In this document: one piece after another, positions 1 to 4,696 of the stretch
How positions within the stretch are numbered: position 1 is the stretch's first letter
How the letters are laid out: each line of letters opens with the position of its first letter
Virus record (IMG/VR): IMGVR_UViG_2802429219_000009
Strand: one strand, 5' to 3'
DNA from: a virus
Taxonomy: Duplodnaviria > Heunggongvirae > Uroviricota > Caudoviricetes
DNA length: 4,758 bases
Notes under the pieces: generated by a model
What the model was told of the DNA's origin: nothing
The model's input: the letters and a program-made list of their open reading frames with translations, nothing else
The model's database searches: none
Translations under genes and position numbers: made by a program

Positions 1-2160
1 GGTTTTCCGCCTTCACATGCCGGGACCATTACCGTCTATGAAGGTTCCAGACCAGGTACGCTGAATGATTTTCTCGGTGCCATGACGGAAGATGATGTCA
101 TGCCGGAGGCATTGCGTCGTTTTGAGGCAATGGTGGAAGAAGCGGCACGCAACGCTGAAGCCGCCTCTCAGAGCGCAGCAGCGGCAAAGAAATCCGAAAC
201 TGCAGCGGCATCATCGAAGAACGCGGCGAAAACCTCAGAAACGAATGCAGCTAACAGCGCACAGGCGGCAGCGTCCTCGCAGACTGCATCGGCAAACTCC
301 GCGACAGCAGCCAAAAAATCAGAAACCAATGCGAAAAACAGTGAGACAGCCGCAAAGACGAGCGAAACCAACGCAAAGTCCAGCCAGACGGCAGCGAAAA
401 CAAGCGAAACGAATGCCAAAGCCAGTGAAACTGCGGCGAAAAGCAGTCAGGATGCAGCAGCCGAAAGCGAGAGTGCTGCAGCTGGTTCTGCGACTTCAGC
501 AGCTGGATCAGCAACTGCTGCGGCTAACAGCCAGAAAGCCGCGAAGACGAGCGAAACTAACGCAAAGTCCAGCCAGACGGCAGCGAAGACCAGCGAAACG
601 AATGCCAAAGCCAGCGAAACTGCGGCGAAAAACAGTCAGGATGCAGCAGCCCAAAGCGAGAGTGCCGCAGCTGGTTCTGCAACAGCGGCAGCTAATAGCC
701 AAAAAGTTGCAAAAACCAGTGAAACTAACGCAAAGACGAGTGAAACAAAAGCAGCAGCCAGCGAGACAGAAGCAACGTCAGCCGCAACAAGAGCAGAGAA
801 TGCAGCCCGGATTGCAGAAGATGCCGCTGATCCTGCTTCTGTCCCTCCGCTTCCTGATATCTGGCTACCCTTGAATGATTCTCTGGAAGCGATAACAGGG
901 TATGCCCCGGGCTATAAAACAATAACCATCGGCAGTGATGAAATAACAATGCCTGTTAATGGCATATGCCAATTTAGCCGGGCTTCATCTGCAACGTATA
1001 TTGATAAGTCCGGGCATATTACCGTGGCAGGGAATAACGTTCCTCGTTTTGAAAAATATGGTTTGCTGATAGAGAATCAGCGAACAAACATGTTCGTAAA
1101 TAGTTTTAATCCTGATGCCTGGAATAAAAGCGGTGGTATATCTGTAACATCATCAACAGATGAATTTGAGTTTAAATATGGACGTTTCACGGTAGGAAGC
1201 GATATAGCAGGAACGACAACAGGGCGAAATATATGCACAGTTGCTGGTAACAAAGGCATAGATGTGACTGGCGATGATCAGTACAGTAAAGGTCCGTATG
1301 TTACCGCGTCGTTCAGGGTAAGAAGTGATCTCAATGTTCGCGCACGTATCCGTTTTGAACGATATAACTCGGAAGGATACACCTTCCTTTGCGACGCCTA
1401 TTTGTCATTACAGACCCATGAACTACAAATTACTGGTGGCAATGCCCAGCTATTAACAGCAAACTTTGAAATCGATCCAGGTAGTGGATGGATATATTTT
1501 CAGGCAACACTGAAATGTCTGCCAGAATGGGGAATGGTTGGTACGCAGCTGCAAATTGCAGCCGACAGAGCTGTGGGGTCTTTTGCAACAGGTGACTGGA
1601 TAGAAGTAACCACCCCGCAATTCGAGTATGGTGCTTGTGCAACTTCCTTCATCATAACGACAACTGAGCCAGCGACTCGTGCATCAGATTTATGTAAATT
1701 TCCGCTGATGAAAAATATGTATACCATGCCTTTTACGTTCATGGTGGAAGTCCATAAAAACTGGTTTATTTCTCATAATGCGGCACCGCGTGTCATTGAT
1801 TCAGAAAATCACCAGTCCGGAGGCCCATTTATTATGGGGTTTGGTTCTTCTGGAACTATTAGTCAGGACGGTTATTCGTATTGCGATATAGGCGGGGCTA
1901 ACCGACGTGTATATGAGTCATGCGGAGTAAGAGATCTTGTTATGGGATTCAGGGTTAAGGCTGACGGCATGACATGCTCATTTGCAAATAAGCATATAAG
2001 CACAGAAACAAAAACAGTATGGAAATATATTCGTGAAGCTGCTGTGATTCGTATCGGGGGACAAACGACGACAGGATTACGACACCTTAATGGTCATATA
2101 AAAAACCTCCGTTTCTGGAACAGAGCATTGTCAGATACGCAGCTTAAGGAATACGTATAA
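1..2160 (+). CDS. stf: Side tail fiber protein, 5'-partial (frame open from base 1; first in-window ATG at 82). Lambda Stf/StfR-like N-terminal region and Ala-rich repetitive shaft, then a different C-terminal tip ending in a LamG/concanavalin-like motif
   Basis: Frame 1 is open from nt 1 with no stop until TAA at 2158-2160. The translation begins GFPPSHAGTITVYEGSRPGTLNDFLGAMTEDD, which matches the conserved region of lambda Stf / E. coli StfR as I recall it. Residues about 30-250 are low-complexity KTSETNAK / AAxSxxAA repeats typical of Stf shafts. The C-terminus ends ...GLRHLNGHIKNLRFWNRALSDTQLKEYV, resembling the terminal strand of LamG-like jelly-roll domains. The alternate-frame and antisense ORFs over 92..949 are composition artifacts. 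Confidence 0.85.
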   Translation, partial: GFPPSHAGTITVYEGSRPGTLNDFLGAMTEDDVMPEALRRFEAMVEEAARNAEAASQSAAAAKKSETAAASSKNAAKTSETNAANSAQAAASSQTASANSATAAKKSETNAKNSETAAKTSETNAKSSQTAAKTSETNAKASETAAKSSQDAAAESESAAAGSATSAAGSATAAANSQKAAKTSETNAKSSQTAAKTSETNAKASETAAKNSQDAAAQSESAAAGSATAAANSQKVAKTSETNAKTSETKAAASETEATSAATRAENAARIAEDAADPASVPPLPDIWLPLNDSLEAITGYAPGYKTITIGSDEITMPVNGICQFSRASSATYIDKSGHITVAGNNVPRFEKYGLLIENQRTNMFVNSFNPDAWNKSGGISVTSSTDEFEFKYGRFTVGSDIAGTTTGRNICTVAGNKGIDVTGDDQYSKGPYVTASFRVRSDLNVRARIRFERYNSEGYTFLCDAYLSLQTHELQITGGNAQLLTANFEIDPGSGWIYFQATLKCLPEWGMVGTQLQIAADRAVGSFATGDWIEVTTPQFEYGACATSFIITTTEPATRASDLCKFPLMKNMYTMPFTFMVEVHKNWFISHNAAPRVIDSENHQSGGPFIMGFGSSGTISQDGYSYCDIGGANRRVYESCGVRDLVMGFRVKADGMTCSFANKHISTETKTVWKYIREAAVIRIGGQTTTGLRHLNGHIKNLRFWNRALSDTQLKEYV
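352..750 (+). repeat. In-frame tandem coding duplication in the fiber shaft: copy A 352..540 (189 bp), copy B 541..708 (168 bp), then a diverged partial third copy from 709. Copy A also carries an internal 21-bp duplication (481..501 and 502..522)
   Basis: Read directly: gcaaagacgagcgaaaccaacgcaaagtccagccagacggcagcg... at 352 recurs as gcgaagacgagcgaaactaacgcaaagtccagccagacggcagcg... at 541 with only scattered substitutions. The protein-level copies are AKTSETNAKSSQTAAKTSETNAKASETAAKSSQDAAAESESAAAGSAT(SAAGSAT)AAANSQKA and AKTSETNAKSSQTAAKTSETNAKASETAAKNSQDAAAQSESAAAGSATAAANSQKV. Confidence 0.8.
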
Positions 2161-2429
2161 TGCGGGATATAACATTACGATTCGATAACAGAGAACAGTT
2201 TAACGCAATTGTATATGACAGTGGCCTGTTCAGTCTTGAAGAAGAAAACGGGGTTCTTGTTGATGTTATTGGCTGCGTTATCGATTACGAGGAGCCAGAA
2301 AACGAAAGATGTACAGGCATTGATCGCGGTGGTTTTTTCGTAAATATGAGGATCGTTGATAGCAGTAAAAATATATCTTCTTTAATGCCTTTCATTACGA
2401 CAGATCAGCATGTAAGGACATGGGCTTAA
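2160..2429 (+). CDS. Hypothetical small acidic protein (89 aa), translationally coupled to the tail fiber gene; function unknown
   Basis: ATG at 2160 overlaps the stf stop (TAATG). AAGGA at 2146-2150 lies 9 nt upstream of the ATG. The ORF is co-directional and tightly packed with its neighbours, with no hydrophobic segment. I recognise no family by eye. Confidence 0.55.
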   Translation: MRDITLRFDNREQFNAIVYDSGLFSLEEENGVLVDVIGCVIDYEEPENERCTGIDRGGFFVNMRIVDSSKNISSLMPFITTDQHVRTWA

Positions 2430-2441
2430 TGGAGTAAGACA

Positions 2442-3125
2442 ATGGTTACAAAAACAGTAATTCCGGGAGACATCACCACGCTAAAGGGAGATATTTCCTC
2501 AATTAACGGAAAAGTATCAACGCTTCAGACTGAGATGACCAGTGCAAAGCAGGATATCAGCTCCAGATACACAAAAACTGAAGTTGATAATAAGCTGAAA
2601 AACAAAGTGGAAGTGAACGATCTGGAAAGTGGTCGTTATGGCGGAGATTTTTATCCACTGACAGGTCGTGAAGCGTTTTATTTATGGAATTTGGCCACGA
2701 CTACAGCGGCGGCAAACCTTTATCTTAATCCTGACCCCGCAATTTCGTCTGTGCTGCGGTCAACATCGTCTATCCGCTATAAACATTCAGTAGAGACAAT
2801 AGATTCAGAGCACGCTGATCTCATTTTCAGGATGCGCCCTGTGTGGTACAGGTCACAATGCGAAAATGACAGGCGTGACTGGGGATTCTACGGATTGATT
2901 GCCGAGGAAGTAGGAGAAATTGCCCCTCAGTTTGTACACTGGCGACCAGCTAACGAAGATGATGCACCGGAAGCTATTTCCAGCAATGGCCTTGTTGCCG
3001 AAGGTGTAATGTACGAACGTCTGGTTGTTCCACTGATTCACCATATCCAGAAGCTGACTGAAAGAGTTGATGAACTTGAGTCAGAATTAAAGTTGTTATC
3101 CGTTTCCCGAAGCGATATCGGATAA
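2442..3125 (+). CDS. Tail fiber-like protein (227 aa) with an N-terminal coiled-coil-like segment and a C-terminal intramolecular chaperone domain (peptidase S74 / endosialidase-chaperone type)
   Basis: GGAG at 2431-2434 lies 7 nt upstream of the ATG at 2442. Residues about 105-220 (nt about 2754-3101) read SSIRYKHSVETIDSEHADLIFRMRPVWYRS...WGFYGLIAEEVGEIAPQFVHW...GLVAEGVMYERLVVPLIHHIQKLTERVDELESELKLL. This follows the S74 chaperone pattern (S-D-x-R-x-K-x-N-I ... P-V-x-Y ... G-F-I-A-Q-E-V ... Y-x-x-L-I-P-L-L-I-x-A-I-x-E-L ... coiled coil) recalled from endosialidase and T5 L-shaped fiber C-termini. Confidence 0.8.
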   Translation: MVTKTVIPGDITTLKGDISSINGKVSTLQTEMTSAKQDISSRYTKTEVDNKLKNKVEVNDLESGRYGGDFYPLTGREAFYLWNLATTTAAANLYLNPDPAISSVLRSTSSIRYKHSVETIDSEHADLIFRMRPVWYRSQCENDRRDWGFYGLIAEEVGEIAPQFVHWRPANEDDAPEAISSNGLVAEGVMYERLVVPLIHHIQKLTERVDELESELKLLSVSRSDIG

Positions 3126-3135
3126 AGGAGGAGTA

Positions 3136-3429
3136 ATGGATATAACACCTTTCCTTCATGCACTTTGTGCTGTGGCTGCGCAGGTACTGATTGGCCTTTT
3201 TACCGGAAACTGGGTTTACGGTGCGATAGCTGGTTGTACGTTCTTCATTGCGCGTGAACACACCCAGGCAGAATATCGCTGGATTGAAATGTTCGGGCAT
3301 GGCAAGCGGATTAACATGCCGTGGTGGGGCGGTTTTGATCCGCGTGTTTGGGATGTGGCAAGCCTGATAGATTTTGCTGTGCCGGTGGTGGCGTGTCTGC
3401 TGGTCTGGCTGTTGGTTAATCGTGGGTGA
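3136..3429 (+). CDS. Small hydrophobic membrane protein (97 aa, 2-3 predicted transmembrane segments), function unknown; candidate lysogenic-conversion or superinfection-exclusion gene
   Basis: A strong RBS (AAGGAGG at about 3125-3131) lies 5-6 nt upstream of the ATG at 3136. There are hydrophobic stretches at residues about 6-38 (FLHALCAVAAQVLIGLFTGNWVYGAIAGCTFFIA) and about 74-94 (VASLIDFAVPVVACLLVWLLV). It is the last gene of the co-directional block. Confidence 0.7.
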   Translation: MDITPFLHALCAVAAQVLIGLFTGNWVYGAIAGCTFFIAREHTQAEYRWIEMFGHGKRINMPWWGGFDPRVWDVASLIDFAVPVVACLLVWLLVNRG

Positions 3430-3439
3430 AAAAAGGTGA

Positions 3440-3559
3440 GCTGTATATGCAACGGAGGAAGAAACCCCGTTGCTGGAAGCCAGGAAAAAGTATCGGGTGT
3501 TGCTGAACCGTGTTGATACGTCAACTGCACAGGATATTGAATGGCCAGCACTGCCGTAG
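3440..3559 (+). pseudogene. tfa: 3' relic of a tail fiber assembly (tfa) gene: a start-less 39-codon frame encoding the conserved Tfa C-terminus
   Basis: Frame 2 is open only from 3440 (preceded by an in-frame TGA at 3437-3439) to TAG at 3557-3559 and encodes [39 protein letters not shown]. The motif [11 protein letters not shown]-x-A-x-DIEWP is the conserved C-terminal signature of Tfa/U-type tail fiber assembly proteins as I recall them. There is no ATG and nothing upstream to complete a full-length tfa. Confidence 0.6.
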
Positions 3560-3656: not shown

Positions 3657-4247
3657 TTATATGTCAGGTGTCTGAAGTTTTGCTTTGGCTCTTAAAATGG
3701 TTTGCCGCGAGGTTTTGAATTCCCGGGCAATGGCACTTATACTTACACCTGACTTAATCCGTTCGAATACCACCTGTTTCTGTTCTTCATTTAACACAGG
3801 TGGTCGACCAAAACGTTTCCCTGCGCCCCGGGCTCTTACTATCCCGGAATGAGTGCGTTCAAGTAAAAGGTCTCGTTCAAATTCAGCGACTGCTGAAATT
3901 ACTTGCATCATCATTTTTCCTGTTGGACTGGTCAGGTCAATGCCCCCCAATGCTAAGCAATGCACTCTGATACCTGTTTCGGTCAGTTGTTCCACTGTTT
4001 TCCTGATATCCATTGCATTACAACCAAGGCGATCCAATTTTGTCACAATCAATTGATCACCACATTTCAGGCGAGCAAGCAACCGGTTAAAACCAGGACG
4101 CTCACTGGTTGCTGCTGAGCCGCTAATGTGTTCTTCGATTATTTGCTGAGGTTTGATTTTAAAACCTGCACTTTCGATTTCCCGGCGTTGATTTTCGGTG
4201 GTCTGATCCAGCGTTGATATCCGACAGTAAGCAAAAATTCGAGACAT
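3657..4247 (-). CDS. pinR: Serine recombinase / DNA invertase of the Pin family (PinR/PinQ-like), 196 aa
   Basis: Intact 196-aa ORF on the - strand. The N-terminus [15 protein letters not shown] carries the catalytic-serine motif of resolvase/invertase-type serine recombinases (Ser at position 11), and the C-terminus has an HTH-like segment ([21 protein letters not shown]). From memory this is essentially the E. coli cryptic-prophage PinR/PinQ sequence; I cannot distinguish pinR from pinQ here. Its placement convergent to the stf/tfa genes matches Rac/Qin/e14 organisation. Confidence 0.92.
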
Positions 4248-4340: not shown

Positions 4341-4696
4341 AAAATAAACGAATGCGTATGCAACCCCGTAATTTTGGTGAGACCCAAAATCGATTTTGTG
4401 AAAAATGGCTTTAACTCGGTTTGTTTTTCGAGTTCCGGGCGGACTCAAGGAAGAAGAATAGTGTTGCGTGTTATTTTAACCAGATTTCAAGTTGTTTGGT
4501 CGTGGAAAAGTGGAGCAAAATGTTGTTAAAGTGGAAAAATGATAAAAAAGTAAGTTTATTATATTACATTTTACCATTTAAATTTTGGTTGTCTTTAAGA
4601 ACTGATATCGCTGTTTGTAATAATTCTTTGTTGAGCTGGCCCCCTGAAATACCAGACAGTAGATGTATCTTAAAATAAGAGATAGGCTTGGATATA

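Follow-up and report, generated by a model that had tools for sequence, protein, structure and literature searches.

Two open reading frames of a prophage, orf89 and orf227, share a frame and are separated by one stop codon, which raises the question of whether they are two genes, one fibre-like gene broken by a mutation, or one gene whose stop is sometimes read through. We analysed the 4,758-nt stretch of DNA that holds them (the window) together with 158 related loci. We are confident that orf89 and orf227 are distinct genes, each translated on its own, and that they form the second and third members of a conserved cassette for side (lateral) tail fibres. As far as sequence can tell, this cassette consists of a fibre gene, a gene for a small accessory protein and a gene for a second fibre with a self-cleaving C-terminal chaperone, with a small membrane protein added in prophages. 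RefSeq and phage depositors annotate two separate genes. The flagged junction is a normal pair of neighbours that annotation pipelines already call correctly, and in itself has little consequence.

The junction and its setting

The window covers the right end of a lambdoid prophage that occupies the Qin site of E. coli, with the gene order stf, orf89, orf227, orf97, tfa remnant and pinQ. Its features are:

1 to 2160, + strand: stf, side tail fibre gene, 5' end outside the window; phrog_1419 over its full length
2158 to 2162, + strand: TAATG overlap, one base being common to the stf stop (2158-2160) and the orf89 start (2160-2162)
2160 to 2429, + strand: orf89, ATG start, 89 aa, TAA at 2427-2429
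2427 to 2429, + strand: orf89 stop codon TAA, next base T; all 158 related loci have a stop at the equivalent position
2430 to 2441, + strand: 12-nt intergenic spacer TGGAGTAAGACA, which holds the orf227 Shine-Dalgarno GGAG
2442 to 3125, + strand: orf227, ATG at 2442, 227 aa, TAA at 3123-3125
2480 to 2485, + strand: mosaic breakpoint, directly past the conserved codons at the orf227 N-terminus
2766 to 2936, + strand: Peptidase_S74 domain core, residues 109-165 of orf227, a Pfam match
3136 to 3429, + strand: orf97, phrog_1443, three hydrophobic segments; fourth cassette gene in prophages
3449 to 3559, + strand: tfa remnant, last 36 codons only; a PGAP pseudogene (L001, 13350-13460)
3657 to 4247, - strand: pinQ, serine DNA invertase; Resolvase and HTH_7, phrog_125

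The sequence of the window bears out the layout given in the preliminary description: both ORFs are in frame 3, and a single TAA plus four sense codons (TGG AGT AAG ACA, W-S-K-T) lie between them. Such a layout has an a priori chance of about 0.28 by our own arithmetic (1/3 for the same frame, times about 83% for four random codons free of stops), and the shared frame is no excess over chance. It arises only because the length of the spacer that bears the Shine-Dalgarno sequence is, by chance, 12 nt. The one-in-three coincidence that had been offered as one reading is supported. Independent translation of the downstream part from a good ribosome binding site, also proposed earlier, is likewise supported: GGAG at 2431-2434 lies 7 nt 5' of the orf227 ATG.

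TAATG-type overlaps are usually read as signs of translational coupling. Ribosomes would end stf at the TAA at 2158-2160 and restart at the overlapping ATG at 2160 to make the 89-aa protein. Translation of orf89 would then terminate at the TAA at 2427-2429, and orf227 would be initiated separately from its own GGAG and ATG 2442.

The full stf gene encodes 785 aa in a genome that is 100% identical (L001, 9704-12061). The protein carries phage_tail_N and has an Ala-rich repeat shaft followed by a domain of the GTA head spike fibre type (NF048003, GTA_spike_fiber, on residues 329-534). Its C-terminal end, GHIKNLRFWNRALSDTQLKEYV, is a motif conserved in relatives. On the other side of the pair, synteny of orf97 is conserved, and in two loci (L066 and L067) orf97 lies directly 3' of the small gene.

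Since pinQ adjoins the cassette, we looked for gix/hix-like crossover sites. Matches to AAACCNNGGTTT with at most 2 mismatches number five, against 2.7 expected, and are put down to coincidence. The best crossover-like match, AAACCTCCGTTT (2103-2114), encodes the conserved NLRFW, which is found in relatives that lack an invertase and have different DNA there; an inverted partner for it was not found in the window. No invertible segment is detectable in the window, and no pair of crossover sites rises above chance.

The stop codon and the spacer in related loci

The preliminary description suggested that a larger fiber-like gene, of about 320 aa, had been split by a nonsense mutation at 2427-2429, with the downstream part a remnant or a re-initiated fragment, and proposed to look for orthologues in which 2160-3125 is one uninterrupted ORF. 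The support for such a split is the shared frame with its single stop. However, in each of the 158 related loci the small ORF ends at one alignment position, with TAA or TGA, and in none is it fused to the second fibre gene. A word-index search with the single orf89 sequence found only four fragments, so a profile search was needed; the best 120 of its 338 matches are 91-94 aa long, apart from one of 114 aa. HMMER, run exhaustively against 1.84 billion representative proteins, gave seven matches and no genuine orf89 fusion. The stop follows R.WA/M at the same alignment position in subfamilies only 26-35% identical, across four phage groups, and no lineage-specific (non-ancestral) stop was found among them. 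The downstream Met and the N-terminal motif that follows it are conserved as well, and the predicted fold of the 89-aa protein is globular, not fibrous. We give the split gene almost no credence.

Several long proteins looked like fused or extended homologues and were rejected. P0005 (246 aa) is an ORF that hops between several frames across the end of stf, orf89 and the start of orf227; it is an assembly or sequencing artefact from a noisy assembly. P0007-P0009, judged spurious, are multi-domain proteins of repetitive, N/T-rich sequence with 25-34% identity. When the stop was replaced by Q and the resulting conceptual fusion was scanned against PHROG, no profile spanned both parts. On that fusion the phrog_3299 alignment reached only about 11 positions upstream of the Met and gained about 10 bits.

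Low-level programmed read-through to a minor functional fusion of orf89 and the fibre would explain why 9- and 12-nt spacers predominate. Homologous spacers among the 158 loci are 2, 9, 10 or 12 nt long, all purine-rich, and most lineages have 9 or 12 nt and hence an in-frame pair. Homology among the 9-nt spacers is apparent from their sequence (T[GA]AGG...ATG). In-frame spacers occur in 6 of 9 subfamily classes (nominal binomial p about 0.04, for classes that are not independent); given this non-independence and the limits that Shine-Dalgarno spacing sets on length, we do not treat the excess as significant. TGA is the leakiest stop in E. coli, and a group of loci with 93-aa small proteins uses it, followed by a first spacer codon GGN that varies only at its third base. 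In the third spacer codon of this same group, though, it is the first base that varies (C/A/G/T), a pattern unlike that of coding sequence.

The in-frame relation, moreover, is not conserved. Spacers of 10 nt in AKFV33 and SA126VB and of 2 nt in VogelGryff and KarlJaspers place the two genes in different frames. Within Drexlerviridae (Tempevirinae), two phages whose small proteins resemble each other differ in this respect: KarlJaspers has 2 nt and tonn 12 nt. Two in-frame variants contain a second in-frame stop: L085 (TGA GGG AGA TAA ATG) and L069 (TAA TAG GGG GTA GTA ATG). In L066 and L067 a 12-nt in-frame spacer precedes an unrelated membrane-protein gene, so such spacers arise without any fusion logic. 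Finally, UAAU is said to be the most efficient, that is the strongest, terminator in E. coli; by this ranking the TAA-T context of the window is not of the leaky type. The spacer behaves as non-coding Shine-Dalgarno sequence, to judge from its purine-rich make-up and from the second stops in variants. Read-through, the other reading put forward earlier, is not required by any of this, and we consider it very unlikely. In a variant of it, slightly less probable still, the predominance of 9- and 12-nt spacers across several phage families would be no accident: rare read-through would join the alpha/beta protein to the second fibre's N-terminus, giving a minor component with a structural or nucleating role, optional and lost in some lineages.

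The two proteins

With two separate genes as the preferred reading, each product can be considered in turn; the functions proposed here for the 89-aa and 227-aa proteins are drawn from synteny and domain homology. The orf89 protein matches phrog_1361, a 92-position PHROG profile of small phage proteins (residues 1-89 against profile positions 1-92 of 92, E = 9.6e-31). Its AF2 model (pLDDT 74.9) is a compact, small globular alpha/beta domain that is not fibre-like, and fold searches returned no informative match. The small gene adjoins a fibre gene in 157 of 157 related loci, through a TAATG or ATGA overlap (the most frequent arrangements) or within 10 nt, and in all 157 this upstream fibre gene ends in GH[ILV]RN.R.W..LTD.Q. 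The orf89 product may be an accessory or assembly factor, or an adaptor, for the tip of the upstream fibre.

The orf227 protein carries the conserved motif MVTKTVIPGDITTLK at its N-terminus, followed by a heptad or coiled-coil stretch and, at the C-terminus, an intramolecular chaperone. The chaperone domain had been placed at this C-terminus in the preliminary description, and Pfam agrees: Peptidase_S74 (PF13884) matches residues 109-165 at 26.7 bits, against a gathering cut-off of 22. Residues 103-215 align to positions 953-1068 of PDB 8hqz_d (L-shaped tail fibre), pairing TSSIRYKH with TSGIEYKK, and the protein also matches the C-terminal ends of phrog_3299 and phrog_454. The cleavage motif S-x-x-x-x-K is present at the start of the domain (S109-S-I-R-Y-K114), and SSIRYK aligns with SDSRLK, SDRRLK and SDRDLK of related second fibres; S109 and K114 are the putative nucleophile and base. 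We infer that orf227 would trimerise, dock by its conserved N-terminus and shed residues 109-227 by S74 autocleavage.

The Met and the motif M.T.T.IP.DIT.LK are kept as the N-terminus in four phage groups, on bodies of 225-586 aa, and short full-length orf227 homologues are present in Drexlerviridae. Many E. coli genomes match only one side of 2480-2485 (query 1-386 versus 381/385-1101): the same orf89, spacer and first 8 orf227 codons are joined to bodies of 227, 234, 346 or 363 aa. This recombination hot spot, just past the conserved orf227 N-terminal codons, matters for engineering the host range of lambda-type side tail fibres. The second fibre gene is absent downstream of the small gene in 21 loci, and small genes of both types (89 and 93 aa) occur with both body types (L034, L085). 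Together with the breakpoint, these absences and mixed pairings indicate that the genes are separable.

A different role for the same two genes is that orf227 is a trans-acting chaperone for Stf, with orf89 as co-chaperone, and not a virion fibre. In the window, Stf lacks its own S74 domain and only a remnant of tfa is left; no more than 108 aa of orf227 precede S109; and depositors annotated the homologues in BASEL phages as 'putative lateral tail fiber chaperone', a role whose key phrase 'lateral tail fiber chaperone' gave no match in a literature search. The same N-terminal motif, however, heads T5-like proteins of 557-586 aa that have large distal domains and are annotated as tail fibres; this is more in keeping with a module for attachment to the virion than with a chaperone. 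The S74 domains of endosialidase and T5 pb1 are known to act in cis, against the trans-acting role. Action in cis is also what is described for the S74 domains characterised so far in PMC4728585. We regard the chaperone role as unlikely.

Comparison with known fibre loci

Read as two genes of a cassette, the window has counterparts in several phage groups. The T5-like phages AKFV33 (orf137-orf136-orf135) and IrisVonRoten (bas32_0022-0024) share its gene order. As in the window, their first fibre ends GHIRN.R.W..LTD.Q and is followed by a roughly 90-aa protein with 30-33% identity to orf89, and then by a second fibre with M.T.T.IP.DIT.LK at its start and a Peptidase_S74 chaperone at its end. 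Their second fibre, with its large distal domain, is 557-586 aa long, compared with 227 aa in the window, and their first fibre sits on a T5-type collar, whereas that of the window would join a lambda-type tail through phage_tail_N. The 10-nt spacer of AKFV33 leaves its genes out of frame, unlike the 12-nt in-frame spacer here. Golomidova et al. (2016, PMC4728585) include AKFV33 in their list of phages that have two ltf genes.

In LtfA-LtfB of DT57C/DT571-2 and gp14-gp15 of phiEco32, a second fibre protein ending in S74 likewise comes right after the first (PMC4728585, PMC10713586). The window too has two consecutive fibre genes, the second with an S74 C-terminus. The second protein of these known systems attaches by its own N-terminus, as that of the window would. 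LtfA of DT57C has its own S74 domain, which Stf in the window lacks, and the consecutive protein numbers gp108 and gp107 suggest that no small gene intervenes there. The DT57C LtfB N-terminus is shared with phiEco32 gp15 (PMC4728585). We rejected orf227 as an LtfB homologue at the N-terminus, as gp15 (MARELMPKSG...) has no similarity to MVTKTVIPGDITTLK visible by eye.

Loci of Drexlerviridae and Seuratvirus (PeterMerian, KarlJaspers, tonn and VogelGryff; BASEL, PMC8594841) contain the same three genes as the window, with a short S74 protein that shares 56-62% identity with orf227 across more than 90% of its length. Unlike the window, these virulent siphoviruses have no orf97, tfa remnant or invertase, and in KarlJaspers and VogelGryff the spacer is 2 nt where the window has 12.

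A parallel to the junction is the coat/A1 read-through of Qbeta, where two coding regions also lie in frame across one stop. The window differs in having its own downstream Shine-Dalgarno sequence and ATG, a frame that is not conserved, a strong stop context and second stops in relatives.

The lambda stf-tfa and Qin/e14 stf-tfa-pin loci share the site and flanks of the window (J, lom, the stf N-terminal domain, pinQ, ydfK and ydfJ'). In the prophage of the window, the cassette has replaced the original 3' end of stf, its distal part, and most of tfa, of which 36 codons are left. The combination of an stf-like fibre gene, the small gene and a second fibre gene is also present in T5-like phages, Seuratvirus and Drexlerviridae. 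A by-product of this analysis is the description of a portable fibre cassette common to these phages and lambdoid prophages, made up of a GTA-spike-type fibre tip, a roughly 90-aa accessory protein strictly linked to it, and an S74-bearing second fibre with its conserved N-terminal motif.

Junction layout and prophage setting

The E. coli genome ECAMP047 is 100% identical to the window over the 1.1 kb tested. The counterpart of the window there lies at the Qin site and forms the right end of a lambdoid prophage whose gene order is tape measure ... J, lom, stf, orf89, orf227, orf97, tfa remnant, pinQ (- strand), ydfK, ynfT and truncated ydfJ. The relevant features are:

1-2160, + strand: stf (side tail fibre gene), starting 198 nt left of the window; 785 aa in one open frame
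2160-2429, + strand: orf89, 89 aa, frame 3, stop TAA at 2427-2429
12 bases after the orf89 stop: spacer, TGG AGT AAG ACA
2431-2434: Shine-Dalgarno (SD) sequence GGAG, 7 nt upstream of the orf227 ATG
2442-3125, + strand: orf227 (second fibre gene), ATG at 2442, 227 aa, frame 3
3136-3429, + strand: orf97 (phrog_1443), three hydrophobic segments; conserved fourth gene of the prophage cassette
3449-3559, + strand: C-terminal tfa (tail fibre assembly) remnant, 36 codons; the 16 letters ending its translation are withheld
3657-4247, - strand: pinQ, intact invertase gene adjoining the tfa remnant

In the stf product, a phage_tail_N end is combined with a shaft of Ala-rich repeats and a domain of the GTA-head-spike-fibre type (NF048003). 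Given this make-up and the short tfa remnant at the Qin site, the cassette with orf89 and orf227 has taken the place of distal stf and most of tfa. The shaft region (about 130-800) consists of degenerate Ala-rich tandem repeats (...KTSETNAKSSQTAAKTSETNAKASETAAK...). In several RefSeq genomes (L001, L076, L077), PGAP breaks the intact 785-aa stf into two, an N-terminal pseudogene labelled 'partial' and a second CDS named 'head spike fiber domain', which appears to be an annotation artefact.

The sequence bears out the preliminary description of the junction: orf89 and orf227 are both in frame 3, with a single TAA and four sense codons between them. Taken alone, such a pattern is nothing unusual: neighbouring genes on one strand will be in the same frame by chance in a third of cases, and a run of four spacer codons has a probability of about 83% of being stop-free. 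The stop of the upstream long ORF (TAA, 2158-2160) overlaps the orf89 ATG (2160-2162) by 1 base. The orf89 stop lies in the context TAA-T, reportedly (Poole et al. 1995) the signal at which E. coli terminates translation most efficiently.

Small gene and second fibre gene in related loci

The four-gene set is also present in other E. coli prophages, where the small protein has 93 aa and the second protein 234 or 346 aa. The first three cassette genes recur in T5-like phages (AKFV33 orf137-136-135, IrisVonRoten bas32_0022-24, KookSpook, phA11), Seuratvirus (VogelGryff, SA126VB) and Drexlerviridae (PeterMerian, KarlJaspers, tonn); orf97 is absent from these virulent phages.

The shared frame had been read as a possible gene split by a nonsense mutation, and comparison of orthologs had been proposed. 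That comparison refutes a split. We pooled 158 fetched loci with a recognisable small gene (some contigs are present twice). The two genes are kept separate, with fusion in 0/158, and the small-gene stop (TAA or TGA) falls at one alignment position in all 158, after a conserved ...R.W[AM]. The orf89 product matches the 92-position PHROG 1361 end to end. A profile search with the small protein against 5.8 billion proteins gave 338 hits, the best 120 of which measure 91-94 aa apart from a single one of 114 aa; an exhaustive HMMER search of 1.84 billion cluster representatives gave seven. The sole long hit with real similarity, P0005, is no genuine fusion: it is a frame-hopping translation that passes in different frames through the end of stf, orf89 and the beginning of orf227, the mark of an error-rich assembly. 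Three other long HMMER hits are repetitive proteins with 25-34% identity, which we regard as spurious.

Spacer length (small-gene stop to second-fibre ATG) and frame relation
12 nt; in frame; the window's type
12 nt; in frame; PeterMerian, tonn
9 nt; in frame; 93-aa prophage type and most T5-like phages
10 nt; out of frame; AKFV33, FFH1, NBEco002, SA126VB
2 nt (TAATTATG / TAATCATG); out of frame; VogelGryff, KarlJaspers

Read-through that serves a function is very unlikely given the out-of-frame 2- and 10-nt spacers and the second in-frame stops in two in-frame variants, L085 (TGA GGG AGA TAA ATG) and L069 (TAA TAG GGG GTA GTA ATG). Tests for the sequence hallmarks of a gene split by a nonsense mutation and of programmed read-through came out negative. 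KarlJaspers and tonn are both Drexlerviridae (Tempevirinae) with similar small proteins and differ in spacer (2 versus 12 nt), so the frame relation shifts even among fairly close relatives. Judging by these spacers, the in-frame relation is not conserved, and of the readings offered earlier the one-in-three coincidence is correct. In-frame spacers do occur in 6/9 subfamily classes (nominal binomial p ~0.04). We do not take this excess as evidence of selection, because the 9-nt spacers are plainly homologous and SD spacing limits the lengths available; a selected in-frame relation is a low-probability reading.

The spacers are purine-rich (GGAG, GGGAGA, GGAAGA, AGGAGG), as SD sequences should be. 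Independent translation of orf227, as previously proposed, is upheld by the GGAG 7 nt from its ATG and by an N-terminal motif that starts at the annotated Met. The flagged junction brings nothing new, since RefSeq and many phage records already annotate such pairs as two genes.

Some loci depart from the usual layout. The fibre downstream in L069 is 500 aa and lacks the usual N-terminal motif. Two IMG/VR loci, L035 and L037, are deletion derivatives in which the spacer TAATGGAG runs straight into the end of a 346-aa-type second fibre (...LLVQVARESDD...); this remnant is still in frame and has no start codon.

Modules and products of the cassette

Synteny is the strongest property of orf89. In 157/157 analysable loci the small gene lies directly 3' of a fibre gene whose product ends in GH[ILV]RN.R.W..LTD.Q, usually with a TAATG/ATGA overlap. 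It is kept where the second fibre gene is missing: 21 loci have no fibre gene downstream, and in L066 and L067 an orf97 homolog follows after 12 nt in place of the fibre gene. Its synteny and persistence therefore lead us to assign orf89 tentatively to the upstream fibre tip, where its protein might act as an assembly factor or adaptor standing in for the lost Tfa. AlphaFold2, run with 31 sequences, models the orf89 protein as a compact alpha/beta domain (pLDDT 74.9, pTM 0.65). For the orf97 product, an exclusion or accessory role at the membrane would be a guess.

Residues 1-15 of orf227 (MVTKTVIPGDITTLK) are part of a motif, M.T.T.IP.DIT.LK, found at the second-fibre N-terminus in all four phage groups; the remaining 225-586 aa carry unrelated distal domains. 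Similarity of E. coli genomes to the window breaks sharply at 2480-2485, just past these conserved codons. At 95-99% identity the query is matched by about 770 E. coli records, and the listed ones align only to the right of this point; other genomes match only to the left. One and the same orf89, spacer and initial eight orf227 codons precede bodies of 227, 234, 346 or 363 aa, and the 89- and 93-aa small-gene types each occur with both body types (L034, L085). The breakpoint, exchanged bodies and mixed pairings mark the orf227 start as a module boundary and recombination hot spot, not mid-gene.

Of known arrangements, the nearest is found in T5-like phages with a two-gene lateral fibre locus; one of them, AKFV33, is among the phages with two ltf genes (Golomidova et al., PMC4728585). 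Lateral fibres may be made up of one large polypeptide or of two or more proteins (BASEL paper, PMC8594841). LtfA/LtfB of DT57C, a much-studied pair, are analogous to the arrangement here and represent a different module. The LtfB N-terminus resembles phiEco32 gp15 (PMC4728585), and we set this pair apart because similarity between the gp15 N-terminus and the M.T.T.IP.DIT.LK motif is not visible.

The downstream ORF does contain the C-terminal chaperone domain described earlier: Peptidase_S74 at residues 109-165 exceeds the Pfam threshold. orf227 can be aligned with residues 953-1068 of 8hqz_d, the C-terminal end of an L-shaped tail fibre of known structure. S109 and K114 in SSIRYK line up with SD.R.K, the cleavage motif in related second fibres, and residues 5-45 of orf227 resemble P22 tail needle heptad repeats (E 0.012). 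Annotations in BASEL phages would fit a trans-acting chaperone for the main fibre, which we consider unlikely. From its domains, orf227 is predicted to be a short trimeric fibre: it would attach through an N-terminal motif, continue as a coiled coil and a small tip, and lose its chaperone domain by autocleavage.

In a conceptual fusion (stop changed to Q), the phrog_3299 alignment extends upstream past the orf227 Met by about 11 profile positions (...VRTWAQWSKT), gaining about 10 bits; Stf also matches phrog_3299 positions 214-446. On these two alignments, phrog_3299 may include long fibres made as a single chain, in which the C-terminal part is homologous to orf227 over its full length.

pinQ and neighbouring repeats

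No invertible segment or crossover-site pair was detectable near pinQ in the window, so this serine invertase gene looks like an orphan left over from the cassette's replacement of stf-tfa. At 2097-2122, ATATAAAAAACCTCCGTTTCTGGAAC agrees at 17/26 positions with a Mu gix site. We judge this match a coincidence because it lies within the HIKNLRFWN codons, and relatives without invertases encode this peptide with different DNA. A perfect 7-bp inverted repeat (ATTTTGG-TGAGAC-CCAAAAT, 4371-4390), which could be an operator or belong to a terminator, sits in AT-rich DNA that separates the pinQ start (4247) from the ydfK 3' end (about 4564, - strand).
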